A stretch of DNA of 64,000 bases from Flavobacteriales bacterium (GTDB taxonomy: Bacteria > Bacteroidota > Bacteroidia > Flavobacteriales_E > Vicingaceae), in the NCBI GenBank assembly GCA_020435335.1, contig JAGQZT010000107.1, positions 4,715 to 68,714 of the forward strand, written 5' to 3'. The translations under genes and the position numbers were made by a program. The notes beneath the pieces were generated by a model. It was given only the letters and a program-made list of their open reading frames with translations. It did no database searches and was not told the DNA's origin. Below are positions 8,897 to 64,000 of this stretch, one piece after another; positions within the stretch are counted from its first letter, which is position 1, and each line of letters opens with the position of its first letter.

Positions 8897-8920
8897 GGAA
8901 CAAAAATAGAACTATCTGGT

Positions 8921-8955
8921 TGTTATTTGAAGTTTGAAGTTTGGAATTTGTTATT
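8921..8955. repeat. Heptamer-periodic tract TGNNNTT x5
   Basis: Reads tgttatt tgaagtt tgaagtt tggaatt tgttatt. It spans the pbpC stop codon to the region upstream of the 8896 start. Confidence 0.7.
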
Positions 8956-11185
8956 CCCCTTGATCTACAATCGTAAATTTCCGCGTAATGGAATTCCCCA
9001 TTTCATCGACCACAGTAAGCAGGTGTTCACCGGCTTCAATGTTCAGCCCCATTTCGTGAATGCCTTTGGTTGAGCCCACATAGCTGTTGTCAACATGCCA
9101 GAACAGCGTAGTACTCTGCTTGCGGTGTGCCGCTTCGAAAACCACTTTCCCTTTCTTGCCACTTATTTCCAGGGGAATGTAGATCAAGGCATTGTGTTCC
9201 GGGTAGATCAACTGAAGGGGTTTGCTTTCCAGATCCTGACAGTCGCTGCGGTAAGGCGGCAGTTTGATGTAGGTCGGATCTGTGCTTTTGTAGTACCATT
9301 CCTGAACGGGTTGCAGTACAAAGTACTTTTTATGCAACATGTTTTCCACGTCCTCACAGTTGCTGTTCACCCGGTAACCACTCTGATCGGTGTGGATCAG
9401 CTGGTGGTATTTGCAGGGAGCTGTTTTCAGGCCGCTTTTTTGCACATAAACCGAATCGACGGGTTCGCAGTTTTCTCCGGCACGCATGCCGCTTTTCCGG
9501 CAGATCGGCACTTTGGCCAGTTCGTCGAAAGGAAGTGGGAACCAATTGTCGTTGGGCAGTAAATCAAAGATGTCAAACAGGATGGGGGCAGCCGAGTTGA
9601 TCCCGGTGAGTCCCGGGCGTCCTTCTCCGTCGGCATTGCCTACCCAAACGCCAACCACGTAATCCGGAGTAGTACCTACAGCCCAGGCATCCCTGAATCC
9701 GAAGCTGGTTCCGGTCTTCCAGGCGATCTTCTGGTTACCCGAAAAGTATTTCCAGTTGACTTCGTTATCCGGGCGATTTACTTCCACCAGGGCTTTGTAG
9801 GTCAGGTAAATGGAGGCGGCACTGATGTTGTTGAAGTCTTCCAGTTTTTCTTCCGGAAGTTCGGCATCGGCCAGGTAGTTGTGTGTACGGTAATCGTGGA
9901 GGTTGTACTGGCCGTTATAGCGTTCGAAATGGTTGAGTGTCCTTGAGAAATTGGTGAACACGTTGGTGATGTCCCACAAGGAGCTTTCAGCGCCTCCCAA
10001 AATGATGGTCAGACCGTAATGATCTGCCGGTTTGTTGATGGTGCTGAGGTTGAGCTTTTGCAGGCGGTGGTGAAATTTTTGAAGGCCGTAATTCTGGAGC
10101 ATCCTAATGATAGGAACATTCAGGGAACGAGATAGTGCTTTGCTGGCCGGGACTACACCACTGTATTTCAGGTTGTAATTTTTAGGGGAATATCCGGCGA
10201 TTTTGGTCGGAATATCGTCTACGAGCGTATTGGGCAACAGATCGCCGTCGCTCAGCATCGAAGCATAGAGTAAAGGTTTGAGGATACTTCCGGTACTTCG
10301 GGGCGCCTGGATCACATCCACATCGTTGCCATGCTCTTTGCTGTCGGTGGTGTTGCCCACGTAAGCCAGAATGTTGCCGGTCTCCACTTCGATGACGATG
10401 GCGGCGGCGTTGTGAATTTCATTGAATTTCAGTTGGAAGTGGTGGTTTTTGATGATCTCATTGCACTTTTCCTGCAGGTGCCGGTCGATGGTGGTACGGA
10501 TCCGTTTTCCTTTGTTTTGAGCGATGACCAGGTTATGCAAGTGCGGAGCGATGTTGGGCAATCGCAATGGTTTTTGAGGAAGAGGCTCTTCTTTCGAAAT
10601 TTCGCAGGTCATGGGATCGATGATGCCCTGATCCAGAAGCTTGTCGAGTAAGCGGTTCCGCTTGGCCAGCAGCAGTTGGTGATTCTTTCCGGGAAAGATG
10701 AGTGATGGTGCATTGGGCAGCACGGCGAGGGTTGCACTTTCTGCCCAGGAGAGGTGCTGCGGACTTCGACCGTAGTAACGCCACGCGGCGGCATCGAGGC
10801 CGACCACATTTCCTCCGAAAGGGGCGTTGGAGGAATAGTAGGCCAGAATTTGTTCTTTTGGCGTAATCATTTCCAGGCGGGTGGCGAAGATCATTTCGAT
10901 GAACTTCTCGAAGAAGGTTCGCCCTTGTCCCTTGCGGGAAAGACGAATTACCTGCATGGTGAGGGTAGAGCCACCGCTCACGATGTGGCCTGCTTTCAAG
11001 TTCTGGTATGTAGCCCGGCAGATAGCGAGGAAATCGATTCCCGGGTGACTGTAAAAGTTCTTGTCTTCGAACTGGATGATGCATTGCCTGAACTTCTCAG
11101 GAACAACATCGTTGTGTGGAAATCGCCATTGACCGTCTTCGGCGATGCGGGCACCGATGAGGTTGCCGTCCTGATCTTCGATCAC
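8951..11185 (-). CDS. pbpC: Penicillin-binding protein 1C (transglycosylase/transpeptidase); true N-terminus probably lies upstream
   Basis: GT51 motifs EDKNFYSHPGID and GGSTLTMQ are present, as are the transpeptidase motifs STGSILKP (SxxK) and KTGTS, plus a long C-terminal PBP1C-type domain. The frame stays open to 11335 and encodes a TM helix upstream of the GTG at 11185. Confidence 0.85.
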   Translation of the reverse strand: MIEDQDGNLIGARIAEDGQWRFPHNDVVPEKFRQCIIQFEDKNFYSHPGIDFLAICRATYQNLKAGHIVSGGSTLTMQVIRLSRKGQGRTFFEKFIEMIFATRLEMITPKEQILAYYSSNAPFGGNVVGLDAAAWRYYGRSPQHLSWAESATLAVLPNAPSLIFPGKNHQLLLAKRNRLLDKLLDQGIIDPMTCEISKEEPLPQKPLRLPNIAPHLHNLVIAQNKGKRIRTTIDRHLQEKCNEIIKNHHFQLKFNEIHNAAAIVIEVETGNILAYVGNTTDSKEHGNDVDVIQAPRSTGSILKPLLYASMLSDGDLLPNTLVDDIPTKIAGYSPKNYNLKYSGVVPASKALSRSLNVPIIRMLQNYGLQKFHHRLQKLNLSTINKPADHYGLTIILGGAESSLWDITNVFTNFSRTLNHFERYNGQYNLHDYRTHNYLADAELPEEKLEDFNNISAASIYLTYKALVEVNRPDNEVNWKYFSGNQKIAWKTGTSFGFRDAWAVGTTPDYVVGVWVGNADGEGRPGLTGINSAAPILFDIFDLLPNDNWFPLPFDELAKVPICRKSGMRAGENCEPVDSVYVQKSGLKTAPCKYHQLIHTDQSGYRVNSNCEDVENMLHKKYFVLQPVQEWYYKSTDPTYIKLPPYRSDCQDLESKPLQLIYPEHNALIYIPLEISGKKGKVVFEAAHRKQSTTLFWHVDNSYVGSTKGIHEMGLNIEAGEHLLTVVDEMGNSITRKFTIVDQGE

Positions 11186-11536: not shown

Positions 11537-12186
11537 CCAATAATCACCCCATCCTTCATGGTCAGTTTGCGGTCGGCCATGTTGGCGAGTTCTTCGTTGT
11601 GGGTCACGATCACGAAGGTCTGGTTGAATTCATCCCTTAATTTGAAAAACAGGTTGTGCAGTTCTTTAGCGGTTTCAGAATCCAGGTTGCCGGAGGGTTC
11701 GTCGGCCAGGATTACTGCCGGATTGTTGATCAGGGCACGGCAAACCGCTACCCGTTGCTGTTCCCCGCCACTCAGTTCCGAAGGCTTGTGGTAAGCCCGT
11801 GCGTCAACACCGAGAGCGGTCAGCAATTTCATGGCTTTTTCTTCCGCTTCCGCTTTGGAAGATTTACCGATATAGGCAGGAATGCACACGTTTTCAAGGG
11901 CCGTAAATTCAGGCAGGAGGTGGTGGAACTGAAACACGAAACCGATGTTCTTATTTCGGAAAAGCGATAGGGCTTTGTCCTTCAATTTGGAGGTGTCGGT
12001 CTCGTTGATCAATACCTCGCCCTGATTAGGTTTGTCGAGCGTACCGATAATCTGAAGCAAGGTGGACTTACCCGCACCGGAGGCACCAACGATGGAGATC
12101 ACTTCTCCCTGTTTGATCTCCAGGTTTACCCCTTTGAGCACATGCAGGTCGCCGTAGGTCTTGTGTATGTTTACTGCTTTGATCAA
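11533..12186 (-). CDS. lolD: Lipoprotein-releasing system ATP-binding protein LolD-like ABC ATPase
   Basis: Walker [10 protein letters not shown], LolD motif [16 protein letters not shown], signature LSGGEQQR and Walker B ILADEP. The start codon is TTG. Confidence 0.75.
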
Positions 12187-12190
12187 GTGT

Positions 12191-12253
12191 TAGTTGTTAG
12201 TTGTTAGTAACTAGTTGAGAGTAGTCTAACGTCTAATGTCTCAGATCTAAATT
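12191..12253. repeat. Heptamer-periodic tract (TAGTTGT x2, TAGTAAC, TAGTTGA ... CTAACGT, CTAATGT, CTCAGAT, CTAAATT)
   Basis: Nine consecutive 7-nt units directly upstream of lolD (minus strand). Contains the reverse complement of TTAGACGTTAGAC at 12224-12236. Confidence 0.7.
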
Positions 12254-12324
12254 CTGTTTCAATAAAAAGCGAAAATACTTAACTTTTGTTGAAAAGTTGC
12301 CATTGATTTCACAAATAAAAAAGT

Positions 12325-12332: not shown

Positions 12333-12357
12333 GATGCATTATAGAAAATCAATAGCT

Positions 12358-17015: not shown

Positions 17016-17104
17016 TTAGGGTTAATTTGATGTAGCGTGACAATAATGGATAATTGAAGATTGAGGTTTGATTATCTTCATATATGGACATTAAAAGATA
17101 AACT

Positions 17105-21722: not shown

Positions 21723-21766
21723 ATTCTTGTGGTTGGTTGCCTGTTACTGGTTGATCGGTATGGCCA

Positions 21767-25620: not shown

Positions 25621-28600
25621 TTACCTTACGATAAGTTTTCTGGTTATTTTATGGGTACCTGATACAACGGTTACCAGGTAGAACCCGGAGTTCAGTTTTT
25701 CGTTGAATCTCAGGGTTGAGTTGTAATCCGTTTCGTCGGTATTGATCACTTGTTGTTGGATCACTTTACCGGAGATGTCGGTAATGATCAGTTCAGCATC
25801 CTGATCCAACCCTTTCAGGTCAAGATAAACAAAGTCTCCGCTGTTCGGGTTCGGATAGATGATCATTTCCAGCTCGTTTACATCGGACCATTGAGGTTCC
25901 TCGTCAAATGAAGACGGTGTTCCGAGTCGTAAGGATGAAGGTGTGGTGATCTGACATACAGTGCCAAAAGAGCCCCATACACCATTAATTTTAGCCCTAA
26001 CACGAACATCATAGGTTGTACTCAATTGAATACCTGGGACATCGTTAACGTAAACATAACGCCAGTTATAATGTCTGTTCATGATCTGGTTATATCCCAA
26101 TCCAATGTTTGAAAATTCATATTGATAATTTGTGGCTCCGGCTACGTAATCACAAGTAATGTAGTTTGAGTAACTGGACATCACGATACCACAATCATTA
26201 TTAATCAGCTTGGTGGTGATTCCATTTGCAGGAGTTGTTATTTGGCAGGTGGTTCCATAAGCCGACCAGATACCGTTTATCTTAGCCCGAACCCTTACAT
26301 TGTAAGTTGTGTTGTTTTGAATACCCGGAACCAGATGAACATAAACTTCACGCCAACTGCTTGATCGGGTGTAGGTTTGAGTATAACTCAGACCAGTGTT
26401 TGAGAATTCATATTCATAATCTGTTGCTCCGGCAGCATAATCACAGGTAATATAATTGGCGTAGTCAGTCATGACAATTCCACAATCACCGGATCTTAAT
26501 TTGGTTACCCCTCCAGTTGAAGGTGTAGTTACCTGGCATACGCTGCCGTAGTTGGTCCATACTCCATTTACTTTAGCCCGAACCCTTACATTATAGGTTG
26601 TATTATCTAAAATACCGGCCACATCGTTCAGGTAAACTTCACGCCAACTGCTCAGTCGGTTATATGTTTGAGTGTACCCCAATCCTGTATTTGAAAACTC
26701 ATATTGGTAGTCGGTTGCTTCGGCAACGTATTCACATTTAATGAATTGGGAATAGTTATTTAGTGTAATACCGCAATAAGCAGACATCAAACGGGTAGTA
26801 ACATCGTTCGCAGGTGTTGTGATCTGGCATACAGATCCGTAACTTGACCAAATACCGTTCACTTTTGCTCTAACCCGAACGTCGTATGTCGTGTTGTTTT
26901 GGATACCCGGAACGAGGAACACATAAACTTCTTTCCAATTGTAGTGTCGGGTATAAGTTTGTGTGTAGCCCAGGCCGGTATTCGAGAACTCATATTGGTA
27001 GGCGTCGGCGTTGGCTACCCAGTCACATGTAATGTAATTCAGGTAATCCGTCATCACCAATCCACAATCCTGACTGCGCAATTGAGTAACACCGCATGCA
27101 TTTACGGTAATATATCCCGTTTTGGTAATCGGATCACTACCGAAGGCATTACTGGCTGTTAATGTCACAGCATAAGTGCCTGCTGATGCATAAGTTACAG
27201 TAGGATTTTGAGCACTGGAAGATGATGGTGTTCCTCCCGGGAACGACCAGCTCCAACTGGTTGGTGTGTTGGTACTCAGATCGGTAAAAGAAACAGAGTT
27301 ACCTTCACAAAGTGTGGTTGGGCTTCCGCTAAAATCAGCAACCGGAGGTGCGCCGCAGGCATTTACCGTAACAGCCATGCTGTTGCTGCCGCCGTTTCCA
27401 CAAGTGTTGCTAGGTGTAACAGCTACGTTGCCCGATGTCGTTCCGAAAGAAACGGTAATGCTGGTTGATCCTTGTCCGGCAGTTATCGTTGCTCCCGAAG
27501 GCACGGTCCAGGTATAGTTCGTGGCACCACTTACGGCAGCTATGGAATAACCGATTCCAGTCGCGTTCTGACAAACAGAGCCGCTTCCTGTAATGCTGCC
27601 CGCATTTCCGGGAACAGTATTGATGCTCACAGCTACGCTGTTACCGCCACCGTTTCCACAAGTGTTGCTAGGTGTAACAGCTACGTTGCCGGCAGTTGTT
27701 CCGAAAGAAACGGTAATGCTGGTCGATCCTTGCCCGGCAGTAATGGTAGCTCCGGAAGGAACGGTCCAGGTGTAATTGGTAGCTCCGGAAACACTTGAAA
27801 TAGAATAGGTTACCCCGGTCGCATTTTCGCAAACGGAAGTAGAACCGGTGATGGATCCGGCATTTCCGGGTACGTCATTTACCGTTACGGTTACCTGTGC
27901 ACAGCTTCCCGGACTAACACAGCCGCCTTCTCCACGAACATAATAGGTTGTTGTGGTAGTCGGTGATACATTGATAGATGTTCCGTTTCCGGCAGATGTT
28001 CCTCCGCAACTGGAGGTATACCACTGCCAGTCGGTGGCATCATTCAGGTTTCCTGTAGCGATGCTTAGCGTGGTACTGTTTCCGTTGCAGATGGTTGTTG
28101 TACCGGAAATAGTCGGTACATCCGGATCGTTGCAGGTAGAAACCGTAGCAATATAAACACCGTAATCTTCAATGTCACCCACAAACGTGTTGCTGCATAC
28201 CGCTCCGGTTCCGTTGGCATCCACATAGGCACGCATACGTAACATTTTTCCGGTTGTTGGTGAGGTTGGAATGGTAACCACCTGGTTAAACGTTCCTGTT
28301 CCTGTTCCTGCCGGTAGTGTGGCGCTCATGACCTTTTCTCCGGCGGAGAACGTCCCGTCGTCGTTGTAATCAATATACACGTCAACATCTTCACTATAGG
28401 TGGATCCATTGTTCAAGGTAACCGACATGGTGTAGCTGCTATCCGGATTAACCGTGGTAGCATGCGAGCAGGAATAATCCACATATTCCTGATTCATGCT
28501 GCCGGATGTGGTATTCGATAAGGTGTTGAATGTGATGTTCGACATCGTATAGCCGTAATTGGCCGGAGGATTGGAACTGGTTGGCGTACAGGCTGCTGTT

Positions 28601-30039
28601 ACAGTTCCTGAAGAAACGTTTAAATATCCATTTACGGTTTTAGAAGATGTTCCGCTGGGGTTGGTAACCTGCAAGGTTACGTTGTAGCTTCCTGCACTGG
28701 TAAAGGTAATGGTTGGGTTTTGATCGGTTGAAGTAATAGGTGTTCCGCCATTGTCAAAGGTCCACAGAAACGAAATTCCGGTATACCCATTATTAGTATA
28801 GGTGTTTGGGGTACAGGAAGATTGATCGTAGAATGTTACGGAACTGTTGGCACAAATGGCCGTAGTTGTCGACGTGAAATCAACCGTTGCCACAACTGGT
28901 GGCGTAAGTGCCGGACTGGTCAGGAAGGAGGCCCGTTCTACGGTCATGGCCGATTTGGCCACGGTTCGTTGTCCGAAGGTAAATTCGCTGGAACATCCGG
29001 TATAATCCATGTAGTTCAGCATGTGATCCTGATGGGTTCCGTTTCCGGTATGGGTAGGCGACATCACCTGGTTGAATGACGGATCACAGGTATTCGGATC
29101 GGTGTTGCCGCAATCGAAATACAGTCCGGGAATATCGCTGGTCCGGAAATGCTGGGGCGTATCGGAAATACCGTCGTCACCACAAACCGAAGGATAGTTG
29201 TCTCCGTCGAATGTGTGAGGTAAATTAAAAGCATGTCCCATTTCGTGAGCCCAGGTATCCGAAGATTCATCCAGGTAAGAACAGATCAGAACCACAGAGC
29301 CGTCCCATGGCTGACCGTGAGAAGAAGCGTAGTAGGCATATCCGGCAGTATAGGATCCGCCGGTGTAGCAGTTTTTATTGTCGATTTCATCTACGATCCA
29401 TACGTTGTAGTACTCGGTCGGATTCCAGATGCTGTATTCTTTCAGGGAGTTCACACCGCCACCGGCAGTATAATCGTTGAGTCCGTTAGTGTTATTCCGG
29501 TTTACGCCATTGTTTACATAAGAAGAAACACCGCTCATGTCTACCCGGTCGATTCCGTCGGTACAGTTTCCCGATTCATCCTGAACGGCCAGCGTGAATT
29601 CAATTTCCATGTCCACACCGTTACCATCACCGTAAGTGCCGGTAATTTTACGCCAGTAGTTGTTCAGGTACTGAATGCCCAATCTTACATCTGCATCAGA
29701 AATATTGGTTCCGGAACCTACCGCTTCTCCCTTGTGCATCACGTGTACCACAACAGGAACCTGATAAATGCCGTTAACCGGGTTTTTATTGATCGGAAGT
29801 TTGGTATAACGGTTAACCGATTCTTCGTGTTTGTAACGGTAAAGGCTATCCGTAGCCATTTTCTTGTTATGAAAGTGGTCAGTAGCACAAAACTCAGGAT
29901 TAATGTGAGTTCTGCGGCTCTGGTAAGTAAGCGATACTGTTGAAGATGCGGAATTCGATTGCTGAATAGGAGGCGCAACCTGAGCAACACCAAACAGCGA
30001 ACATGAAGCCAATAAAATGGATAAAGAAATATTTTTCAT
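25621..30039 (-). CDS. Large secreted metzincin-type zinc metalloprotease with PKD, GEVED, PKD-like and repeat modules, and a T9SS C-terminal sorting domain
   Basis: Signal peptide present. HEMGHAFNLPH (HExxHxxxxxH) at aa 265-275, GEVED-type motif VGDIEDYGVYI near aa 620, two PKD domains, internal repeats, and a C-terminal IIYPNPNSGDF...FYLVTVV...KLIVR sorting domain. Confidence 0.9.
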   Translation of the reverse strand: MKNISLSILLASCSLFGVAQVAPPIQQSNSASSTVSLTYQSRRTHINPEFCATDHFHNKKMATDSLYRYKHEESVNRYTKLPINKNPVNGIYQVPVVVHVMHKGEAVGSGTNISDADVRLGIQYLNNYWRKITGTYGDGNGVDMEIEFTLAVQDESGNCTDGIDRVDMSGVSSYVNNGVNRNNTNGLNDYTAGGGVNSLKEYSIWNPTEYYNVWIVDEIDNKNCYTGGSYTAGYAYYASSHGQPWDGSVVLICSYLDESSDTWAHEMGHAFNLPHTFDGDNYPSVCGDDGISDTPQHFRTSDIPGLYFDCGNTDPNTCDPSFNQVMSPTHTGNGTHQDHMLNYMDYTGCSSEFTFGQRTVAKSAMTVERASFLTSPALTPPVVATVDFTSTTTAICANSSVTFYDQSSCTPNTYTNNGYTGISFLWTFDNGGTPITSTDQNPTITFTSAGSYNVTLQVTNPSGTSSKTVNGYLNVSSGTVTAACTPTSSNPPANYGYTMSNITFNTLSNTTSGSMNQEYVDYSCSHATTVNPDSSYTMSVTLNNGSTYSEDVDVYIDYNDDGTFSAGEKVMSATLPAGTGTGTFNQVVTIPTSPTTGKMLRMRAYVDANGTGAVCSNTFVGDIEDYGVYIATVSTCNDPDVPTISGTTTICNGNSTTLSIATGNLNDATDWQWYTSSCGGTSAGNGTSINVSPTTTTTYYVRGEGGCVSPGSCAQVTVTVNDVPGNAGSITGSTSVCENATGVTYSISSVSGATNYTWTVPSGATITAGQGSTSITVSFGTTAGNVAVTPSNTCGNGGGNSVAVSINTVPGNAGSITGSGSVCQNATGIGYSIAAVSGATNYTWTVPSGATITAGQGSTSITVSFGTTSGNVAVTPSNTCGNGGSNSMAVTVNACGAPPVADFSGSPTTLCEGNSVSFTDLSTNTPTSWSWSFPGGTPSSSSAQNPTVTYASAGTYAVTLTASNAFGSDPITKTGYITVNACGVTQLRSQDCGLVMTDYLNYITCDWVANADAYQYEFSNTGLGYTQTYTRHYNWKEVYVFLVPGIQNNTTYDVRVRAKVNGIWSSYGSVCQITTPANDVTTRLMSAYCGITLNNYSQFIKCEYVAEATDYQYEFSNTGLGYTQTYNRLSSWREVYLNDVAGILDNTTYNVRVRAKVNGVWTNYGSVCQVTTPSTGGVTKLRSGDCGIVMTDYANYITCDYAAGATDYEYEFSNTGLSYTQTYTRSSSWREVYVHLVPGIQNNTTYNVRVRAKINGIWSAYGTTCQITTPANGITTKLINNDCGIVMSSYSNYITCDYVAGATNYQYEFSNIGLGYNQIMNRHYNWRYVYVNDVPGIQLSTTYDVRVRAKINGVWGSFGTVCQITTPSSLRLGTPSSFDEEPQWSDVNELEMIIYPNPNSGDFVYLDLKGLDQDAELIITDISGKVIQQQVINTDETDYNSTLRFNEKLNSGFYLVTVVSGTHKITRKLIVR
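25933..27090 (-). repeat. Four tandem ~96-aa (about 288-nt) coding modules
   Basis: Occupies aa 984-1369. Each module reads CG.VM.DY.NYITCDY...Y.YEFSNTGLGYTQTY..R..W.EVY....PGI.NNTTY.VRVRAK.NG.WS.YG..CQITTP. Confidence 0.85.
27358..27873 (-). repeat. Tandem duplication of a 258-nt (86-aa) PKD-like module
   Basis: aa 723-808 and 809-894 (VPGNAGSITGS.SVC.NATG..YSI..VSGATNYTWTVPSGATITAGQGSTSITVSFGTT.GNVAVTPSNTCGNGG). There is an exact 41-nt match between 27392-27432 and 27650-27690. Confidence 0.9.
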
Positions 30040-37744: not shown

Positions 37745-38602
37745 ATGAAAAACTACCTTTCCCTCATAAAGTTCAGCCACACCATTTTTGCGTTGCCTTT
37801 TGCATTGATCGGGTTTTTTATTGCGTTGAATTCGCTGAACCGGCACATTGATTGGCTGTTGTTTGTTTATGTGATTCTATGCATGGTCTTTGCCCGGAGT
37901 GCGGCCATGGCTTTTAACCGGTATATCGACCGGAAGATCGACAGCAAAAATCCACGGACGGCCGAAGTGCGCGAAATACCGAATGGAACCATCAGCCCGG
38001 CCAATGCCCTGGTGTTTGTGGTCGTAAACTGCCTGTTATTTATCGGCGTAACTTATTTCATCAATCCCCTGTGTTTTTATTTGTCGCCCGTTGCCCTGTT
38101 TGTCGTGCTGGGCTACAGCTTAACCAAACGCTTTACCGCTCTTTGTCATTTGGTGCTGGGGTTGGGGCTTTCTCTGGCTCCGATCGGAGCCTATCTGGCG
38201 GTTACCGGTGTGTTTGACTGGCTGCCGTTATTCTTTTCATTTGCCGTATTGTTTTGGGTGAGCGGTTTCGACATTATCTATGCCTTGCAGGATGAGGAAT
38301 TTGATAAGGCGGAACAGCTGCATTCCATTCCGGTGCTGCTGGGAAAAAGCAGGGCCCTCATGCTCTCTAATTTTTTGCACCTGATCACGGCCGGGTTCAT
38401 TTTATTGGCGGGCTACTATGGAGAAATGGGCATGTATTACTGGATTGGTTCGGCATTATTTATTGGGTTGCTGATCTACCAGCATACGCTGGTTAAGGCG
38501 GATAACCTCTCCAAAGTGAACCTCGCTTTTTTCACAACGAACGGTGTGGCAAGCGTTTTGTTTGCCTGTTTTGTGTTGTTAGACTTGTTTTTAGCATCAT
38601 AA
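37745..38602 (+). CDS. UbiA-family aromatic polyprenyltransferase (candidate menaquinone prenyltransferase of the futalosine route)
   Basis: Motif NRYIDRKIDSKNPRT (NxxxDxxxD) and a second Asp-rich box YALQDEEFD, with 8-9 TM helices. Confidence 0.75.
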   Translation: MKNYLSLIKFSHTIFALPFALIGFFIALNSLNRHIDWLLFVYVILCMVFARSAAMAFNRYIDRKIDSKNPRTAEVREIPNGTISPANALVFVVVNCLLFIGVTYFINPLCFYLSPVALFVVLGYSLTKRFTALCHLVLGLGLSLAPIGAYLAVTGVFDWLPLFFSFAVLFWVSGFDIIYALQDEEFDKAEQLHSIPVLLGKSRALMLSNFLHLITAGFILLAGYYGEMGMYYWIGSALFIGLLIYQHTLVKADNLSKVNLAFFTTNGVASVLFACFVLLDLFLAS

Positions 38603-38603
38603 A

Positions 38604-39269
38604 ATGAAAAAAGCCCTGCACAAAATAAAACGAATTCTGCTGAACAAGTGGACCATCATCCTCAGTTCGGTGCTGATCTTATTTGTTGTACTTTCCAATG
38701 TCCTGATTATTCAAACTACCAGCGATAAGATCTACGAGGAGGTGGACCAAACTCCCGAAAAGAAGATAGCCCTGATATTGGGAACGAGCCGGTATACCAC
38801 CTGGGGAGGGACCAACCTGTATTTCAAATACCGGATTCGGGCAGCAGTCGATCTCTATAAGAATGGGAAGGTAAAGCATATCCTGGTGAGTGGCGATAAC
38901 AGTGTGTCGAATTACAATGAGCCCCGCGAAATGCGGAGGGCACTAATTGCTGCAGGCATTCCCGAGCATGCTGTTACCTTGGATTATGCAGGGTTCCGTA
39001 CACTTGATTCCGTAGTCCGGTGTAAAGAAGTTTTCGGTCAGGAAGATGTGATCATTATTTCCCAGCGGTTTCATCTCGAGCGGGCACTCTTCATTGCAGC
39101 AGATTACGATATGGATGCCATCGGTTTTGCTGCTCAGGATCCTCCCGAAAACTATTCGTTCAAGACCCAGTTCCGTGAATATTTTGCTAAAACCAAGGCG
39201 GTAATCGACCTCTATGTGATCCACAAAGAACCTAAATTCTTAGGTAAAAAAGAAGTCATTCATTTTTAG
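38604..39269 (+). CDS. sanA: SanA/YdcF (DUF218) family protein
   Basis: N-terminal TM helix plus ILVSGDN...YNEP..M...L...GIP....LDYAGFRTLDS, the SanA signature. Confidence 0.75.
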   Translation: MKKALHKIKRILLNKWTIILSSVLILFVVLSNVLIIQTTSDKIYEEVDQTPEKKIALILGTSRYTTWGGTNLYFKYRIRAAVDLYKNGKVKHILVSGDNSVSNYNEPREMRRALIAAGIPEHAVTLDYAGFRTLDSVVRCKEVFGQEDVIIISQRFHLERALFIAADYDMDAIGFAAQDPPENYSFKTQFREYFAKTKAVIDLYVIHKEPKFLGKKEVIHF

Positions 39270-39323
39270 GGTGTAAAAATAATTACCTGATAATCAGTAT
39301 GATATGTATATTTTAACTACTAT

Positions 39324-39334
39324 GTATTGCATAC
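39324..39334. promoter_or_regulatory. Candidate PadR operator GTATTGCATAC (GTAT-N3-ATAC), site 1
   Basis: Lies 17 nt upstream of the padR -7 box. An identical 11-mer recurs at 41440-41450. Confidence 0.35.
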
Positions 39335-39350
39335 TACTAAATAAAACATA

Positions 39351-39358
39351 TATCTTTG
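39351..39358 (+). promoter_or_regulatory. -7 promoter box TATCTTTG
   Basis: TAnnTTTG match 19 nt upstream of the padR ATG. Confidence 0.5.
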
Positions 39359-39376
39359 TAATGTAAACTAGGGTAC

Positions 39377-39700
39377 ATGAAAATTGAGAACACAAAAGCA
39401 CAAATGCGGAAAGGGGTATTGGAGTATTGTATTCTCTCCATTCTGAAAAACGGAGAAGCCTATCCGTCGGAGATCATTGATAAGCTCAAGGAAGGGAAGC
39501 TCATTGTGGTGGAAGGAACACTGTATCCCTTGTTAACCCGGTTAAAGAATGAGGGGATACTCAGCTACCGCTGGGAGGAGTCGAAATCCGGTCCGCCGAG
39601 GAAATACTATCAGTTGACCGAAAAAGGGAACGGGTTTCTCAAAGAGCTTGAAGTAACCTGGGATGAACTGGTAAATGCCGTACGGTTAACGAGTAAGTAG
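39377..39700 (+). CDS. PadR family transcriptional regulator
   Basis: Winged-helix region YCILSIL..GEAYPSEI....L......VEGTLYPLLTRLKNEGIL...WEES..GPPRKYYQLTEKG. Confidence 0.9.
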   Translation: MKIENTKAQMRKGVLEYCILSILKNGEAYPSEIIDKLKEGKLIVVEGTLYPLLTRLKNEGILSYRWEESKSGPPRKYYQLTEKGNGFLKELEVTWDELVNAVRLTSK

Positions 39701-39767
39701 ATATTAGAGGTTGGATAGTAGAAGTTAGACGTTAGACAATAGTCAATAATAAATAGACAATATAAAG
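39698..39767 (+). repeat. Ten in-phase heptamers starting T(A/G)N, seven of them TAG
   Basis: Reads tagatat tagaggt tggatag tagaagt tagacgt tagacaa tagtcaa taataaa tagacaa tataaag. The first TAG is the padR stop codon, and the ATG at 39769 follows after 1 nt. Confidence 0.85.
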
Positions 39768-39768
39768 G

Positions 39769-41394
39769 ATGAACCAAACAGTTACCATTAACATTAGCGG
39801 AATCGTTTTTCACATTGAAGTGGATGCTTACGAAGAGCTGAAGAGTTACCTGAACAAGATCAAAAGTTATTTTAACGATTCTCAGGAGCGGGAAGAGATC
39901 ATGGCCGATATCGAATCCAGGATCGCGGAGTTGTTCAGTGAAAAAATAACTCAGATGAATCAGGTTGTTTTAATGAGAGATGTCCAGGAAGTGATCGAAA
40001 TCATGGGGAAACCGGAACAGTACGTCACCGAAGAGGATGAACAGGAAGAAACTGCAGAGAAAACACAGTCCAACCGGTCCGGCGGCGAAAAGAAATTCTT
40101 CCGGAATCCGGATGAGCGGGTTTTGGGTGGCGTGTGCTCGGGGATTGCGGCCTACTTTGGCTTCGATACCATCTGGATGCGCTTGTTCTTTGTGATGACC
40201 ACACTTTTTATGGGATTCGGCCCGGCTATTTACATCATTCTCTGGATTGTTATTCCTGAAGCCAAAACCGCTTCTGATAAATTACAGATGAAAGGAGAGC
40301 CCATCAACATCGATAACATCGGCAAGAAGGTGGAAGAGGAGGCCGATAAGGTGAATGAGAAACTCAAAAACATCAATACCAGTAAAGTCGGTCATGCTTT
40401 GGAACAGTTTTTTGCCGGGTTAGGCAATGTCTTGAAAACGATTTTCCTCGCTTTTGGTAAGGTGCTGGGTGTGGCGCTGCTGATGCTCGGATTGCTGCTG
40501 GCAGTTTGGTTTCTGGTTGGGTTGTTCGACGATAGCATCATTTTGACCTATACATCTTCAGGGGTTTCTGCTCTGGAGTCGGGGGCTTTTTTTGAGCTGG
40601 TATTCAGTTCGGAAGATCAGTTTACGATCTTTCTGGCCGGACTCATCATTGTTCTGGCTATTCCCATCATCGGCCTGATCCTGGGAGGGCTTAAAATGCT
40701 GTTCGGTTTCAGTACCAACAATGGACTGGGAATTTCCCTGACTATTCTGTGGTTTATCGGCCTTTTTACCTTAGCCACACTGGCCATCATCGTAGCCACC
40801 GAGCACAAGGCGAATGAAAAAATATCGGCCGTGAAGTTGTTACCTTCAGCATATCATGCTTATGCCTTAAAAGCGAATGAAGATAATGTTCCGGGGGAGT
40901 TGATGCTGGAGGCGGACGAGTTCATGATCGCCGTGAAGGATGATCGGTTTTATTGCAATGAGCTGGAATTGACTGTTGAAAAAAGCGAAACGGACAGCTT
41001 TGAACTGGTTGTTGTTACCAAAGCCAAGGGGAAAACTTCCAAAGATGCCATGGGTCGTGCCCGGGCGGTAGATTATCATATGCAGGTTCAGGATAGCAAC
41101 CTGGTGTTCGACCGGTTCTGGTCCACACTGAAAGAGCATAAGATTCGGGGGCAACAAGTCAAACTCGTATTGAAATTACCGGTAGGAAAAACCATTTATC
41201 TGGATGATTCGCTGGATGGGTTGATCTATAACATCGAGAATGTAACCGATACCTGGGATCACTACATGCTGGGAAAAAAATGGATCATGCTGGATGAAGG
41301 ATTAACATGCCTCGATTGTGAAGACATCGAAGGAGTGAGCTCTTCCGAATTGGATTCCGTTCTGACCAAAGAACTAAGTATAAGTGGAAATTAG
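39769..41394 (+). CDS. PspC-domain membrane protein
   Basis: PspC domain RNPDERVLGGVCSGIAAYFGFDTIWMRLFFV...ILWIVIPEA, several TM helices, and a C-terminal extracytoplasmic domain. The pairing with padR is typical. Confidence 0.85.
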   Translation: MNQTVTINISGIVFHIEVDAYEELKSYLNKIKSYFNDSQEREEIMADIESRIAELFSEKITQMNQVVLMRDVQEVIEIMGKPEQYVTEEDEQEETAEKTQSNRSGGEKKFFRNPDERVLGGVCSGIAAYFGFDTIWMRLFFVMTTLFMGFGPAIYIILWIVIPEAKTASDKLQMKGEPINIDNIGKKVEEEADKVNEKLKNINTSKVGHALEQFFAGLGNVLKTIFLAFGKVLGVALLMLGLLLAVWFLVGLFDDSIILTYTSSGVSALESGAFFELVFSSEDQFTIFLAGLIIVLAIPIIGLILGGLKMLFGFSTNNGLGISLTILWFIGLFTLATLAIIVATEHKANEKISAVKLLPSAYHAYALKANEDNVPGELMLEADEFMIAVKDDRFYCNELELTVEKSETDSFELVVVTKAKGKTSKDAMGRARAVDYHMQVQDSNLVFDRFWSTLKEHKIRGQQVKLVLKLPVGKTIYLDDSLDGLIYNIENVTDTWDHYMLGKKWIMLDEGLTCLDCEDIEGVSSSELDSVLTKELSISGN

Positions 41395-41439
41395 GGTTGC
41401 CAACCATCATTTTATCTTGCCGATAATGTAAAAGAAGAA

Positions 41440-41450
41440 GTATTGCATAC
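41440..41450. promoter_or_regulatory. Candidate PadR operator GTATTGCATAC, site 2
   Basis: Exact repeat of the 11-mer at 39324-39334. Lies between the PspC-domain gene and the flippase gene. Confidence 0.3.
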
Positions 41451-41517
41451 AATAGTTGTATATTTTTAAAGTTAGTTAGTTATCCCACCTCAATGACCTT
41501 CCTGTTTAGTTAGTGCA

Positions 41518-44010: not shown

Positions 44011-44098
44011 CTGAGTTGATAGTTAGAAGGTGTAAAGTTCGTAAAGTTTTGGGAAATGGCCTTTACAAAAACTTTCTACTTTCTACATTCCACTTTCT
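44011..44098. repeat. Heptamer/nonamer-periodic tracts in the trmD-bioB divergent region
   Basis: First tract reads ctgagtt gatagtt agaaggt gtaaagt. At 44071-44098 the sequence is actttct actttct acattcc actttct. Confidence 0.65.
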
Positions 44099-44111
44099 AA
44101 CTAGTTATCCC

Positions 44112-44119
44112 TAAATTTG
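44112..44119 (+). promoter_or_regulatory. -7 promoter box TAAATTTG
   Basis: TAnnTTTG match 18 nt upstream of ATG 44137. It argues against the TTG start at 44128. Confidence 0.5.
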
Positions 44120-44136
44120 TTTCTAAATTGAAGCAC

Positions 44137-59910: not shown

Positions 59911-61836
59911 TTATCTTATTTCTGATAAACATAATTCAGCATTAGCATACTGCTGAACCCAAAAACCATGTTGCTTACCGTTTTTGTAATTTTTCTCTTT
60001 ACTTCTGATTTCTTTGATTTTTCTTTGGGCTTTATCCTTAATTGAATTTAGAGCTTTTACTTTATTATCGTGAGAAATTCTAGTCAAACATTGAGTGGGA
60101 ATTAGATGTGTTTTTAATCTACCTTCTCCTCTTGGATCACTTACTTCGAAACCTAAGTCCTCCTCCTTAACATTAAACAATTCCTTTAATTCGGGAGTAT
60201 CTAACACTAAAAATCCATTTTGATAAGCTTTTTCACCTGTAGGTATAAGATGATCTTCCACCAGTATTAGAAACCCGTCATCCGAAAGAATTTTATTAAT
60301 GAATCCACCTGATTTAAAAAGAGTCAACCAATCCTTAGGGTCTATTTCATGTAACACATTACACATGATAATCGCCTGAAATGATTTTTGATCATACTTG
60401 GCTAACAAATCATCTTCTGAATTAAAATACCTATCTAAGCTATCACCGTAAGCAGAAGCTATAGCATTCTCACATTTTTCTTTATCCTTATTATCAGGAT
60501 CAAACGCAATATAATCTAGTTGCTTTATTAACTTGTCGTGATTGGAAACATCCTGTTCGTTTAAGTTTGAAATAATCCTACCCTTACCCGCCCCAAAATC
60601 TAATACCCTGATCTTATCATTTTGAGATATATCTAGCAAGCTCTGTCTAATTTGGAGAGATTGAGGATCGGACGAACCTGTTTCCACCGTAGGAGGAGAA
60701 AAAAGACATTCAAATGCATATCTAGTAGACGCAAATTGAGATGGAAGACTGATGAAGTCCCTTAATTTGTCAATTTGCTCCTCATCTCCCAACAAACTAT
60801 GTAGCACCTTTTCTGGAATTTTACCCGCATGTTTTATGTTACCATTTTCAACAAACCAGATCATAGATGGATCAAAGTGTGAAAGTATCGGAATAGAATG
60901 TGTTGAAATCCAAATTTGTCCATCTTTTACTACATCTCTAATGGCATCAATCATTTCAATAACAGCCTGTGGGTGAAGATGGTTTTCTGGCTCATCCATA
61001 AACAATATCATTTCATCAAGTTGGACACCCTGACTATACAAGGCAACGCAAAACTGTAATAAAACATTCTGACCAGCGGATAATCTTGCTAGTCCTAACG
61101 GGAAATCAAATAGCGTTGCATCTCCTTCGATCGTTCTTCCTATTTCTGTTTTGAGAAAAGTTTTAATTAAACTGTTTAACTCATCAAATTCCCTTATCGC
61201 TCTATTTTTAACCTCATCTTCTTGTGTTGATTCTGGATGGGTTGCTTCCCACTTTAAATTTTGTAGTTGTTGAATTTTTGATAATGAGCTTGCTGCTAGA
61301 TTAGATATACCAATGTTTTGAGTTGCAGTTGCGTGCTGGTTAATCATGTTTTTCGTAAGATTAGTTGGATCCGTCAACTTTGCATTTAAAGGGACAAATT
61401 TTACTATTTGATAACGATCCCCTAGCTCATACGTCACAATTTTGTTCCAATTAATGTGAGCTTTATTATCTATAATTTCTTGCTGATGATATTTTATATC
61501 TTTCTCCCCCTCCTTTATTAATGTATTATAATATGCAACCTCATTATGAAGATTATCTTTTCTGGTTAATCTCTTCTTATAGCTAGTAATTGTTTTTGTA
61601 AGATTATCTATTGCTGTTTTAGATACTTTTATTTCTTTTTCACAATTTAATACATTTTGTTTTTTGGGTTTATGTTTAATAGTTGAAGATATCTTGTCTA
61701 ATATCCTAGATTTTCCACTACCGTTTTTGCCTGCTAATAGGACTACTTGCTGTAATCTATCCATTTTTATCTCTCCCAATCCATCTTCGGTTGCAGGATT
61801 TGTGTTTTTCAGAATATTAACTGATTTTATTCTCAT
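59911..61836 (-). CDS. AAA_21/ABC-type ATPase fused to a class I SAM-dependent methyltransferase domain
   Basis: Walker A GKNGSGKS (aa 36-43), a coiled-coil insert, signature-like LSAGQ (aa 252-256), Walker B/D-loop ILFMDEPENHLHP (aa 277-289) and H-loop STHS. The MTase part has motif I VLDFGAGKG (aa 411-419), then YIAFD, IIMCNVLHEI and GFLILVED. Confidence 0.8.
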   Translation of the reverse strand: MRIKSVNILKNTNPATEDGLGEIKMDRLQQVVLLAGKNGSGKSRILDKISSTIKHKPKKQNVLNCEKEIKVSKTAIDNLTKTITSYKKRLTRKDNLHNEVAYYNTLIKEGEKDIKYHQQEIIDNKAHINWNKIVTYELGDRYQIVKFVPLNAKLTDPTNLTKNMINQHATATQNIGISNLAASSLSKIQQLQNLKWEATHPESTQEDEVKNRAIREFDELNSLIKTFLKTEIGRTIEGDATLFDFPLGLARLSAGQNVLLQFCVALYSQGVQLDEMILFMDEPENHLHPQAVIEMIDAIRDVVKDGQIWISTHSIPILSHFDPSMIWFVENGNIKHAGKIPEKVLHSLLGDEEQIDKLRDFISLPSQFASTRYAFECLFSPPTVETGSSDPQSLQIRQSLLDISQNDKIRVLDFGAGKGRIISNLNEQDVSNHDKLIKQLDYIAFDPDNKDKEKCENAIASAYGDSLDRYFNSEDDLLAKYDQKSFQAIIMCNVLHEIDPKDWLTLFKSGGFINKILSDDGFLILVEDHLIPTGEKAYQNGFLVLDTPELKELFNVKEEDLGFEVSDPRGEGRLKTHLIPTQCLTRISHDNKVKALNSIKDKAQRKIKEIRSKEKNYKNGKQHGFWVQQYANAELCLSEIR

Positions 61837-61875
61837 GACTTAGTAATTAAAAAAACCAATGTACTAAAAACGAAG

Positions 61876-61883
61876 TATATTTG
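61876..61883 (+). promoter_or_regulatory. -7 promoter box TATATTTG for the SIR2-like gene
   Basis: TAnnTTTG match 17 nt upstream of ATG 61900, inside the 63-bp divergent intergenic region. Confidence 0.5.
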
Positions 61884-61899
61884 ATGAAAACCATCGAAA

Positions 61900-62913
61900 A
61901 TGGCAAACATCACATACTATATTGGAGCAGGCGCAAGTTGTAATTCTCTTCCTCTAGCAAAGGATATGCATCAAAGATTAATTGAATTCAAAGAGTATAT
62001 TATTTACTTAATTGATGAGAAAGGACTGAATAATCATTTTTCCAATTCTTACTTAACGGAACTTGATAAAATAATTCGACTTGTGTTTGAAAATGGAACC
62101 ATTGACACCTGTGCTAGGACAATGTACCTAAATGGAAGACAATCAATGGATTTAGTAAGGTTAAAGTCAATATTAAGTGGATATATCTTGTTTGAACAAA
62201 CAAGAAAAGACGAAGGATTTTTAACGAATAAAGACTCTGGGAAACAAGATCACCACAATAGAGTGATCGATCAAAGATATCCTGCGTTTATTACAAATCA
62301 AATTGATGGAAATTCAAGAAAACTGAAAGATAATATTAAAATCATATCTTGGAATTATGATTCCCAGTTCGAGCTATCTTATTCCAATGTTGTAGGTTGT
62401 CCCATTGATATGGCTCTCAATCAACTCAACGTATATCCTTCTCCATATACAAATACTGATGAAAATTATAGCATCATTAAGTTGAATGGAACAGCAGGAC
62501 TGACAGATGAACACAACAGAGTTTCGGCTGAATACTTAAGCATACTCGAATTTGATCCACTATCATCCATGAATTTCATTATCGATCTTCTTAAATCAAA
62601 TAACCAGAGAAATTACGTACCAAATCAATTGTTTTTTGCTTGGGAAGATTATCACATCCCAAAGAATTCGAAAGAATTAGCAAAAAAGATTATTTCGGAA
62701 ACAGATATTCTTATCGCAATAGGCTATTCATTTCCAGATTATAACCTTGAAGTGGATAGGTATATTTTTGATGGAAATAGGATTGAAAAAATGTATTATC
62801 AAGTTCCACCCCAATATTTTGAGGATTTAAAGCTAAATATTGCCAAAGTAAATAGTGATTTGTTACAAGTGTGCGAAAATATTTCCAGACCCGAGTTTTT
62901 AATACTGAGTTAA
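61900..62913 (+). CDS. SIR2-like / AbiH-like (DHS-like NAD-binding fold) protein
   Basis: Motifs are YIGAGASCNSLPL (GAGxS), IISWNYD (TNYD-like, N152), IIKLNGT at the position of the KLHG catalytic His (N196), and ILIAIGYSFPDYNLEVDRYIF (the GYS..D motif). Confidence 0.6.
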   Translation: MANITYYIGAGASCNSLPLAKDMHQRLIEFKEYIIYLIDEKGLNNHFSNSYLTELDKIIRLVFENGTIDTCARTMYLNGRQSMDLVRLKSILSGYILFEQTRKDEGFLTNKDSGKQDHHNRVIDQRYPAFITNQIDGNSRKLKDNIKIISWNYDSQFELSYSNVVGCPIDMALNQLNVYPSPYTNTDENYSIIKLNGTAGLTDEHNRVSAEYLSILEFDPLSSMNFIIDLLKSNNQRNYVPNQLFFAWEDYHIPKNSKELAKKIISETDILIAIGYSFPDYNLEVDRYIFDGNRIEKMYYQVPPQYFEDLKLNIAKVNSDLLQVCENISRPEFLILS

Positions 62914-62926
62914 CTGTGTTTATAAA

Positions 62927-63145
62927 TCATTTAATATCGATCAATTCCACCAAACTAACCTCTAAACATTTCGCAAGTTTTCTCAGCATGTTAATGGAAC
63001 TATTTACCCTCCCACTTTCAATCCGTCTCAATGATGAATCATCGATCTTCATCCTGTAGGCTAATTCGGATTGGGTTAGCTTTTTCTTCTGCCTAACCTC
63101 TTTTATTCTCTTCCCTAGTTTTTGTAGGTATTCCTCATCCTTCAT
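62927..63145 (-). CDS. XRE-family helix-turn-helix transcriptional regulator
   Basis: 72 aa with KKLTQSELAYRMKIDDSSLRRIESGRVNSSINMLRKLAKCL, a classic Cro/CI HTH. Confidence 0.85.
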   Translation of the reverse strand: MKDEEYLQKLGKRIKEVRQKKKLTQSELAYRMKIDDSSLRRIESGRVNSSINMLRKLAKCLEVSLVELIDIK

Positions 63146-63176
63146 TCCCTAAAAGTGAAACTTATTTCAAAAAAAT

Positions 63177-63198
63177 AACAGGGCATATATGCTCTGTT
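63177..63198. promoter_or_regulatory. 22-bp near-perfect palindrome, candidate XRE operator
   Basis: aacagGgcatatatgcTctgtt, with one mismatched pair. Lies in the divergent region between the XRE gene and the lipoprotein gene. Confidence 0.45.
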
Positions 63199-63244
63199 AG
63201 GTAAAATTTAATACCTTAGCAGGGAATCAATAAAAACTAAAAAA

Positions 63245-63763
63245 ATGAAATCACTTCGAACCTTATCGATGCTTGTAATACTCGCAAGCATATTAGTAAC
63301 TGGATGTAAAAAAGAAGAGTATCAACCAAAAGGTGATTATCAACCCGCGGGAAATTATGTTACTTCTGGAACAAACAACAATACAGTCAAGAACTATGAC
63401 ATAACCGTTAACACTTGGGAATGGACATTTGACAACACGTACCAAAGACATTATTACAGGTACGGAGTGGCTGCGCACTACAACTCACTAGTAGTATGTT
63501 ATGTGATTTCTGGAAGCGGAAAACAAATCATGCCATACTATGAAGGTGTTTCGCAGCAGGGCTATGATTTCGCAAACAACCTATTCCAAACATGGCAGTA
63601 TATTGAGTTACAATACACGAACTACAATTCTCCTAGTAGCGCGCCAAGTAGTGCCAGATATTTTTACATCGTAGTTGTTCCTCCATCTGCCAGAGAAGCG
63701 CATCCCAACTTGGATTATTCCGACTTAAATCAAGTTAAAAGTACATTTAACCTGAAGGACTAG
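63245..63763 (+). CDS. Hypothetical lipoprotein
   Basis: Signal peptide with lipobox LVTGC. I recognise no family. Confidence 0.55.
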   Translation: MKSLRTLSMLVILASILVTGCKKEEYQPKGDYQPAGNYVTSGTNNNTVKNYDITVNTWEWTFDNTYQRHYYRYGVAAHYNSLVVCYVISGSGKQIMPYYEGVSQQGYDFANNLFQTWQYIELQYTNYNSPSSAPSSARYFYIVVVPPSAREAHPNLDYSDLNQVKSTFNLKD

Positions 63764-63936
63764 TGAATGAGATAACAGTAGTATTTGACGAGTTTCTAAA
63801 ACAATGCTCCCGAGAGGACTTGGAATTTATCGTTTCAAATGAAGTCAGTAATGAAGAGATTATTACTCTGTTGAAGAAAAAGGAAGCAGAGGTGAAACAG
63901 AACATTCTTGAAAACTTTGGGATTACGATCAGTTAG
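63763..63936 (+). CDS. Possible 57-aa acidic protein (GTG start overlapping the preceding stop)
   Basis: Translated by hand: VNEITVVFDEFLKQCSREDLEFIVSNEVSNEEIITLLKKKEAEVKQNILENFGITIS. It is followed by a terminator. Confidence 0.25.
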   Translation: MNEITVVFDEFLKQCSREDLEFIVSNEVSNEEIITLLKKKEAEVKQNILENFGITIS

Positions 63937-63963
63937 CATCAAATCACTCCTCATGCCTTTCAC

Positions 63964-63989
63964 AAATCAGCCTCATTGGCTGATTTTTT
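63964..63989 (+). terminator. Rho-independent terminator
   Basis: Stem aatcagcc / ggctgatt followed by tttttt. Confidence 0.7.
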
Positions 63990-64000
63990 ATTTAGATTTG

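Follow-up and report, generated by a model that had tools for sequence, protein, structure and literature searches.

A degenerate heptanucleotide array fills the padR-pspC spacer of a Vicingaceae genome and belongs to a wider set of period-7 and period-8 intergenic arrays

What is the sequence that fills the gap between padR and the PspC-domain gene downstream of it in a genome of the Vicingaceae, and why should it repeat every seven nucleotides? The locus lies within a stretch of 64,000 nt (hereafter the window) on contig JAGQZT010000107.1 of GenBank assembly GCA_020435335.1, which was obtained from a Flavobacteriales bacterium. The genome (G000) comprises 3.03 Mb on 147 contigs, has a GC content of 44.7% and is 94% complete; its nearest named relatives are metagenome-assembled genomes of the Vicingaceae (Bacteroidota). 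The padR stop codon TAG at 39698-39700 is also the first triplet of the repeat tract, and from there ten in-phase heptamers run through the 68-base spacer to one base short of the pspC ATG at 39769, in the order tagatat, tagaggt, tggatag, tagaagt, tagacgt, tagacaa, tagtcaa, taataaa, tagacaa and tataaag, followed by a single g and the ATG. We show here that this tract is a new example of a repeat class already known in cyanobacteria, Beggiatoaceae and Bacteroidetes. In addition, we suggest that it is probably a decayed heptamer array, which grew in place by tandem duplications of 7 and 14 nt and which now serves at most as an unstructured, A-rich leader lacking a Shine-Dalgarno (SD) sequence.

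The periodicity of the tract is well defined. Its self-identity is 0.64 at lag 7, 0.63 at lag 14 and 0.60 at lag 21, as compared with 0.16-0.37 at every other lag up to 21. Matches at lag 7 amount to 41 out of 64, a value that none of 20,000 shuffles with dinucleotides preserved attained, whether lag 7 alone or the whole range of lags 4-12 was considered (p < 5e-5), and Tandem Repeats Finder reports both period 7 and period 14 inside the tract, one nested in the other. A preliminary description of the window, made by reading the DNA letters, had proposed that ten in-phase heptamers, mostly TAGNNNN, fill the spacer and that the tract is G-poor towards the start codon, and each of these statements is borne out: seven of the ten units open with TAG, and the last 35 nt are A-rich and G-poor, the first half of the tract being C-poor. 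The copies are degenerate, the longest perfect tandem being GTTAGACGTTAGAC and the longest run of exact lag-7 identity 7 nt, equivalent to two perfect units. As the tract is identical in the Logan assembly of SRR15882951, it is not peculiar to the GenBank assembly. Among the Rfam 15 covariance models, none matched the tract in a search of positions 38500-41500, where two sub-threshold snoRNA hits located elsewhere are due to chance. No Bacteroidota-type promoter box TAnnTTTG is found inside the tract, and therefore it is most likely part of a padR-pspC bicistronic mRNA.

Folding of the tract RNA gave a minimum free energy (MFE) of -5.2 kcal/mol, compared with -4.1 ± 1.6 kcal/mol for shuffled sequences (z = -0.7), and no terminator hairpin was detected in or after the tract. 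With no structure present, a reading of the tract itself as an RNA hairpin or terminator was rejected. The start region of pspC is likewise open; among 2040 genes, only 11.7% are equally weak or weaker in structure between -30 and +30 and only 7.8% between -70 and +40. Genes with a single-polarity array upstream have a median of -12.0 kcal/mol, as against -15.7 kcal/mol for other genes with an upstream spacer of at least 60 nt (p = 7e-4), and for arrays of a single polarity, C84:10418-10493 being an example, the MFE is 0. Sequences upstream of start codons are A-rich genome-wide, with a G frequency of 0.10-0.11 at positions -18 to -7, and no SD sequence was found upstream of start codons anywhere in G000. 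As a possible role, the unstructured, SD-less initiation platform suggested in the preliminary description agrees with the z value of the tract, with the place of the pspC start among the least structured 8-12% of genes and with the missing SD sequence.

The preliminary description had proposed to align orthologous junctions. padR lies next to pspC at each of the 30 loci that were read, which comprise the window's own and those of 29 relatives and extend to other genera and families of the class, but the spacer between them ranges from -8 to 165 nt, its units differ and its sequence is not conserved; the relatives do not represent independent samples. In the closest relative, G014, whose PspC is 68% identical, the spacer has 25 nt and no array, in G008 it has 43 nt with one CAATAGAC and no array, in G010 it has 1 nt, and in several further genomes it measures -8 to 24 nt. 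Spacers of 75-84 nt in G004, G001 and G019 consist of (TAAGAC)n followed by (GTCTTN)n, and those of 74-83 nt in G020, G017 and G018 of (TAGTG)n followed by (CAAACAC)n. The spacer of 165 nt in the G030 genome from another family (L021, contig C54) holds 19 near-perfect, G-free copies of CATCTAAC/CATTTAAC and is a young array. Three congeners (G005, G015 and G022; loci L007, L009 and L010) have about 400 nt at this position, apparently with an extra small open reading frame (ORF) that starts MKT or MKS and has a signal-peptide-like N terminus. A scan of metagenomes found no near relatives.

The tract is not the only one of its kind in the genome. Global autocorrelation of crude intergenic DNA gave no lag-7 peak, residual period-3 coding signal being dominant, and a strict match/mismatch tract finder proved too stringent for degenerate arrays; local window counts were therefore used instead. 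Genes were called with an in-house ORF caller based on codon usage, so that start positions are approximate, and noncoding windows in which 18 or more of 28 positions matched at the given lag were counted, shorter-period tracts being left out, and compared with 20 shuffles. At lag 7 we found 48 such windows against a shuffle mean of 6.05 and a maximum of 11, and at lag 8 there were 32 against a mean of 7.6 and a maximum of 12. Counts at lags 4, 5, 10, 11 and 13 did not exceed about twice the chance level, and those at lags divisible by 3 were raised by residual coding sequence. The genome-wide enrichment of period 7 for which a check had been proposed in the preliminary description is thus present, and the arrays of period 8 had been overlooked. 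Merging both periods gives 80 arrays with a total length of 3.9 kb. Few cores are in use: by exact 4-mers repeated four times, a CAAA/TTTG core is found at 12 of 31 period-7 loci and an AACT/AGTT core at 10 of 18 period-8 loci, as compared with 0-3 loci at periods 5, 10 and 11, and three successive TAGA occur at four loci with period 7 and at none with period 5, 6, 8, 9 or 10. We also considered whether TTTG/CAAA arrays are clusters of promoters, and rejected this, as at seven of the nine intergenic loci listed the motif reads CAAA, and not TTTG, on the sense strand of the gene downstream. Near-identical copies at C67:2922-3239 and 5258-5591 contain (TGTTTGT)n and (TTTGGGT/TTTGAGG)n arrays of period 7; they were called inside ORFs and may represent the duplication of a region that is noncoding or encodes a repeat protein.

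The arrays are spread in proportion to intergenic length, as for a mutational product: intergenic regions of type ++, --, -+ and +- hold 26, 18, 21 and 7 arrays on 61, 56, 55 and 24 kb, respectively. As the counts track the share of intergenic length, the arrays are not tied to promoters or 5' ends. There is a marked strand asymmetry, with 55 of the 80 arrays purely G-type or purely C-type as against about 36 when noncoding windows are taken at random. Of the array ends that lie no more than 60 nt from a start codon, 26 are poor in G and nine poor in C when read in the mRNA sense (p = 0.006), which matches the general A-rich, G-poor make-up of the DNA upstream of starts in G000, and array ends beside stop codons are unbiased (15 versus 17).

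Five of the period-7 and period-8 arrays of the genome are located in the window, and the individual tracts are listed in Table 1 together with the two genes. The preliminary description had named five further tracts besides the one at padR. Three of them, 8921-8955, 12191-12253 and 44071-44099 (the core of what it gave as 44011-44098), hold up individually, but neither 17052-17074 nor 21727-21761 (p = 0.19) is significant by itself. Gene 8066-8896, on the minus strand, has a conserved TTTTTG box, and the array at 8913..8961 lies upstream of this gene on the distal side of the box. The array at 12183..12259 and the padR-pspC tract share the 13-mer TTAGACGTTAGAC on opposite strands (two matches versus 0.04 expected); we discounted this as meaningful, since one common 7-mer unit is not rare given two heptamer arrays. 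Two other features of the window may be recorded here, namely a 258-nt tandem duplication (1.9 copies, 76% matches) at 27371-27870 within an ORF of 1472 aa (25621-30039), and a GC content of 0.335-0.345 at 60001-64000, versus about 0.45 elsewhere in the window, which may mark an accessory island.

Table 1. Genes and period-7 tracts of the window discussed in the text
Feature	Position	Strand	Remarks
padR	39377..39700	+	107 aa; Pfam PF03551 PadR, E = 3e-19; 82-90% identical in congeners
Degenerate heptanucleotide array, 10 units, core TAGA plus three variable bases	39698..39768	+	fills the padR-pspC spacer; p < 5e-5
pspC, gene for HAAS-PspC-LiaI/LiaF-TM-Toast-rack membrane protein	39769..41394	+	541 aa; PF22564, PF04024, PF22571, PF22744; conserved partner of padR
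Period-7 array, CAAATTC CAAACTT CAAACTT CAAATAA in gene sense	8913..8961	-	p <= 1e-4
Mirrored period-7 array, (TGTTAGT)x3-4 then (NGTCTAA)x4, divergent intergenic region	12183..12259	.	12191-12253, p <= 1e-4
Weak three-unit period-7 tract upstream of folD	17043..17075	+	p = 0.086 after look-elsewhere; alone not significant
Period-7 array, ACTTTCT x4, G-free	44071..44107	+	p <= 1e-4; just upstream of the TAAATTTG box of a bioB-like gene

Turnover comparable to that at padR-pspC was seen at three other array-bearing junctions of the window. At these junctions, promoter-proximal modules such as TTACTTTTG and TAAATTTG, which from their sequence we read as putative -7 boxes, are conserved across five congeners, but the arrays are not. 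G014 and G008 lack the array part, save for weak ACTTT-type units in G014 at the 44071..44107 junction, and in G010 the arrays of G000 are replaced by arrays of other units. Thus the 8913..8961 array is absent in G014, G008, G004 and G019, and G010 has (AACTATN)n in the same position. In the 12183..12259 region, conservation within the genus covers the promoter-proximal 85 nt and does not include the array; in G010 (L054), upstream of the gene orthologous to 12334-13569, (ATCAGTT)n, the reverse complement of TAACTGA, replaces the (TGTTAGT)n of G000, and a TCT-type array comes next after it. The ACTTT-type units of the 44071..44107 junction do recur in the same position in G010. At the same junction, the TAATTAAATTTGTT module with its TAAATTTG box upstream of the bioB-like gene (44100-44136, compared with L057-L059) is conserved in G014, G010 and G008, and the array DNA just upstream of the module turns over among the relatives. 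Pattern counts in 41 relatives gave a patchy picture of lineage-specific units, with hundreds of matches in G035 and G003 and none in G016 and G038. G000, G010 and G077 also count among the array-rich genomes, and G014 and G008 among those poor in arrays.

Heptanucleotide repeats of this kind have been known for some time, an early class being the short tandemly repeated repetitive (STRR) sequences of cyanobacteria. While the preliminary description knew of no feature class that would explain the tract, the class has been described, as heptanucleotide long simple sequence repeats (LSSR), as cyanobacterial STRR and as intergenic heptamers of the TAACTGA type (PMC4679880). The latter are direct repeats located just upstream of start codons in intergenic regions of Beggiatoaceae, cyanobacteria and five Bacteroidetes (MacGregor, 2015; PMC4679880); other heptamers occur alongside them, relatives have shorter, repeat-free spacers, S1, Csp and CsrA have been named as candidate binders and translational roles have been proposed (PMC4679880). 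The padR-pspC tract resembles this family in being an intergenic series of head-to-tail 7-nt repeats, which in that family often end a few bases from the start codon and replace the SD sequence, and in having close relatives with shorter spacers free of repeats; it is also in forward orientation, a single nucleotide separates its end from the ATG, and an SD sequence is lacking. It differs in that its unit is TAGA-N3 and strongly degenerate, and in that it lies between two cistrons of one operon. Tandem TAACTGA (TAACTGATAACTGA) does not occur in G000, where AACTGA recurs at period 8.

The likeness to LSSR and STRR sequences concerns the arrays of G000 as a whole, since 7-nt units are in excess, found in noncoding DNA only and patchy across lineages. 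According to the summary of Mrazek et al. (2007) in PMC4679880, heptanucleotides are the commonest unit of long simple sequence repeats, and polymerase slippage has been proposed as their origin. Confinement to noncoding DNA is explained by 7 not being a multiple of 3. The tract has ten units above chance, shares its genome with many noncoding arrays and sits in an orthologous spacer that turns over, as do members of these classes; however, LSSR are defined on near-perfect repeats, and the arrays of G000 mostly consist of a core and variable positions. In Nostoc PCC 7120, contiguous heptamers abut or overlap the start codons of many genes, their deletion altered reporter output and a binding partner has been postulated (bioRxiv 10.1101/2022.06.06.494920). 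The contiguity of heptamers at start codons is shared with the tract, although the phylum and the units are different and the effects in Nostoc were measured at promoters. A further comparison can be made with the hmw1A gene of Haemophilus influenzae, reportedly a phase-variable contingency locus with 7-bp repeats upstream; in both cases 7-nt tandem repeats lie between regulatory signals and a start codon, and expression could be tuned by the number of copies. A contingency locus requires a long perfect repeat tract, and here the longest perfect run is two units and the neighbours form a housekeeping stress-response pair. With at most two perfect copies, the tract is not now a hot contingency locus.

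We think it probable that the tract is a decayed array of the STRR/LSSR type. A local AATAGAC- or TTAGAC-like sequence in an otherwise short intercistronic spacer would have served as the seed, and repeated tandem duplications of 7 and 14 nt through slipped-strand mispairing may then have extended it in this Vicingaceae lineage, after its split from the sequenced relatives, with later point mutations blurring the copies. Transcribed within the bicistronic padR-pspC mRNA, the C-poor and then A-rich, G-poor stretch would not fold, would keep the two cistrons apart and would provide the pspC start codon with an open, SD-less leader of the kind used by Bacteroidota ribosomes. Such a leader fits translation initiation in the Bacteroidota, and a need for the tract in pspC expression is a conjecture. 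The preliminary description had also considered slippage-prone spacer DNA; this is upheld as an origin, in view of the nested 7- and 14-nt periods, the spread of spacer lengths and the 19-copy 8-mer array of G030, but not as a present state.

Several observations weigh against this account. Pure neutral slippage does not explain why only periods 7 and 8 are enriched, why the same few cores (CAAA, AACT and, at period 7 only, TAGA) recur at unlinked loci, or why mirrored arrays have a fixed polarity, and with a longest perfect repeat of two units ongoing slippage is unproven. Furthermore, in a column test 20 of 82 arrays had their unit differences concentrated in 2-4 columns with an invariant 4-nt core (combined p = 4e-14), a result that is real for the class yet partly confounded by higher-order duplications of 14 nt.

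One alternative, which we regard as unlikely and which corresponds to the protein-binding array of the preliminary description, sees in the tract a periodic platform for binding. A protein with a single-strand-binding OB fold (ribosomal protein S1, or a cold-shock-domain protein that takes up about 7 nt for each monomer) or another oligomerizing protein would bind TAGA-N3 units in register on mRNA or DNA and so set pspC expression. Many arrays do keep an invariant 4-nt core at a fixed step of 7 or 8 nt between variable spacers, few cores are in use genome-wide, the genome has two genes for cold-shock-domain proteins, at C28:16597-16785 and C114:8038-8214, and one CspB per heptamer, as well as S1, have been discussed as candidates (PMC4679880). 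No single specificity would fit all loci, as the cores vary from one to the next (CAAA, AACT, TAGA, ACTTT and others), the column test was not significant for the padR-pspC tract itself (p = 0.36), and the closest relatives lack the tract despite a conserved operon. Arrays are also found between convergent genes, an example being a mirrored period-8 array of 187 nt (C51:15356-15542) between the stop codons of a rhomboid-like gene and uvrB, which cannot be a 5' leader. In this array, roughly 11 units of N4-AGTT precede roughly 10 units of AACT-N4; their cores do not vary (AGTT in 11 of 11 units at 15356-15445), the 4-nt spacers are neither conserved nor complementary, and a hairpin with an MFE of -46 to -54 kcal/mol is predicted (z = -3.6, -4.8).

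Mirrored arrays lead to a second alternative, which we hold to be similarly doubtful, namely that the tract represents one half of a hairpin element with heptamer arms, its 5' (purine or G-type) arm, the 3' arm having been lost or never formed. Adjoining G-type and C-type arrays in G000 are arranged G-then-C in 13 cases and C-then-G in five, and at co-directional junctions the mirrored arrays are G-then-C in nine cases and C-then-G in none. When 151 genomes of the class were counted for the main patterns and for the same patterns read backwards as controls, [GTTT-N3]x3...[AAAC-N3]x3 was found in 12 genomes, [TTTG-N3]x3...[CAAA-N3]x3 in one and both reverse orders in none. Five of those genomes have long hairpins such as (GTTTCGG)n-loop-(CCGAAAC)n, and 10 of 11 hairpins inspected in other genomes lie in co-directional gene pairs and start 3-16 nt past a stop codon. 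In G077 alone, the pattern of (GTTTCGG)n-loop-(CCGAAAC)n hairpins was matched 84 times on many contigs (e.g. L038 and L048), and the G-arm always leads; for several of these hairpins the distance from a preceding stop codon is 3 nt, and some arms have at least 10 units. In many Bacteroidia, junctions between a stop and the next start codon are filled by mirrored arrays in this way; as intercistronic hairpins these may have a part in coupling, processing or stability, or they may be related to repeat-flanked cassettes while lacking genes. The padR-pspC junction itself is mirrored in two groups of congeners (G004, G001, G019 and G020, G017, G018), where it folds with z down to -2.9, and the tract aligns with the 5' arm of these arrays. 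However, alignment of low-complexity DNA is weak evidence, and the tract has a single polarity, no complementary arm and no fold, which sets it apart from the mirrored class even though that class is present in G000. Mirrored arrays generally fold as zippers with helices of 4-7 bp and regular internal loops, with z down to -4.8, but in G000 pairing is limited to the 4-nt cores, as the spacers are not complementary. Moreover, the sole PF05635 gene of G000, encoding a 23S rRNA intervening sequence (IVS) protein (C132:97398-97892), has no 7- or 8-periodic arrays in its flanks.

We give rather less credence to the idea that arrays are built or kept by a dedicated process, either a protein that polymerizes along the repeats or polar repair or synthesis that extends 3' ends towards the centre. 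It is suggested by the 4-nt core that stays invariant while recurring at strictly 7 or 8 nt, by the same cores at unlinked loci and by the G-then-C order (13 genomes versus none among the 151, and nine junctions versus none in G000). In that case the padR-pspC tract would be one half of an element that is still live, and its length would set the ratio of PadR to PspC expression.

The proposal in the preliminary description that the tract is a frame-independent translation stop, with a TAG every 7 nt selected to halt ribosomes in all three frames after padR, appears very improbable. The TAG that opens most units does close all frames, and TAG-N4 repeated four times occurs at three loci in the genome and at none with period 5, 6 or 8, but this preference merely follows the period of the class. 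AT-rich spacers close all frames quickly in any case, most arrays of the class have other cores (CAAA, AACT and others) without TAG, and relatives manage with spacers of 1-25 nt or overlapping genes, so that the class as such is not characterized by TAG phasing and the proposed role finds no support. Least credible is an antitermination or attenuation site of the HutP or TRAP type, in which a ring-shaped RNA-binding protein would bind UAG triplets 4 nt apart, since the UAG-N4-UAG spacing of the Bacillus subtilis HutP site is a resemblance only, PF09021 has no match in the 94%-complete G000 (the B. subtilis control was positive), and the tract has no terminator hairpin and is not conserved in relatives.

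A decayed heptamer array thus remains the reading we prefer for the padR-pspC tract, and the polarity of mirrored arrays and their conserved-core architecture are the part worth pursuing, across genomes more than at this locus. The padR/HAAS-PspC module is tightly conserved while the gap within it varies from an overlap to 165 nt of repeats, and this provides a natural experiment on the effect of such arrays on SD-independent translation.

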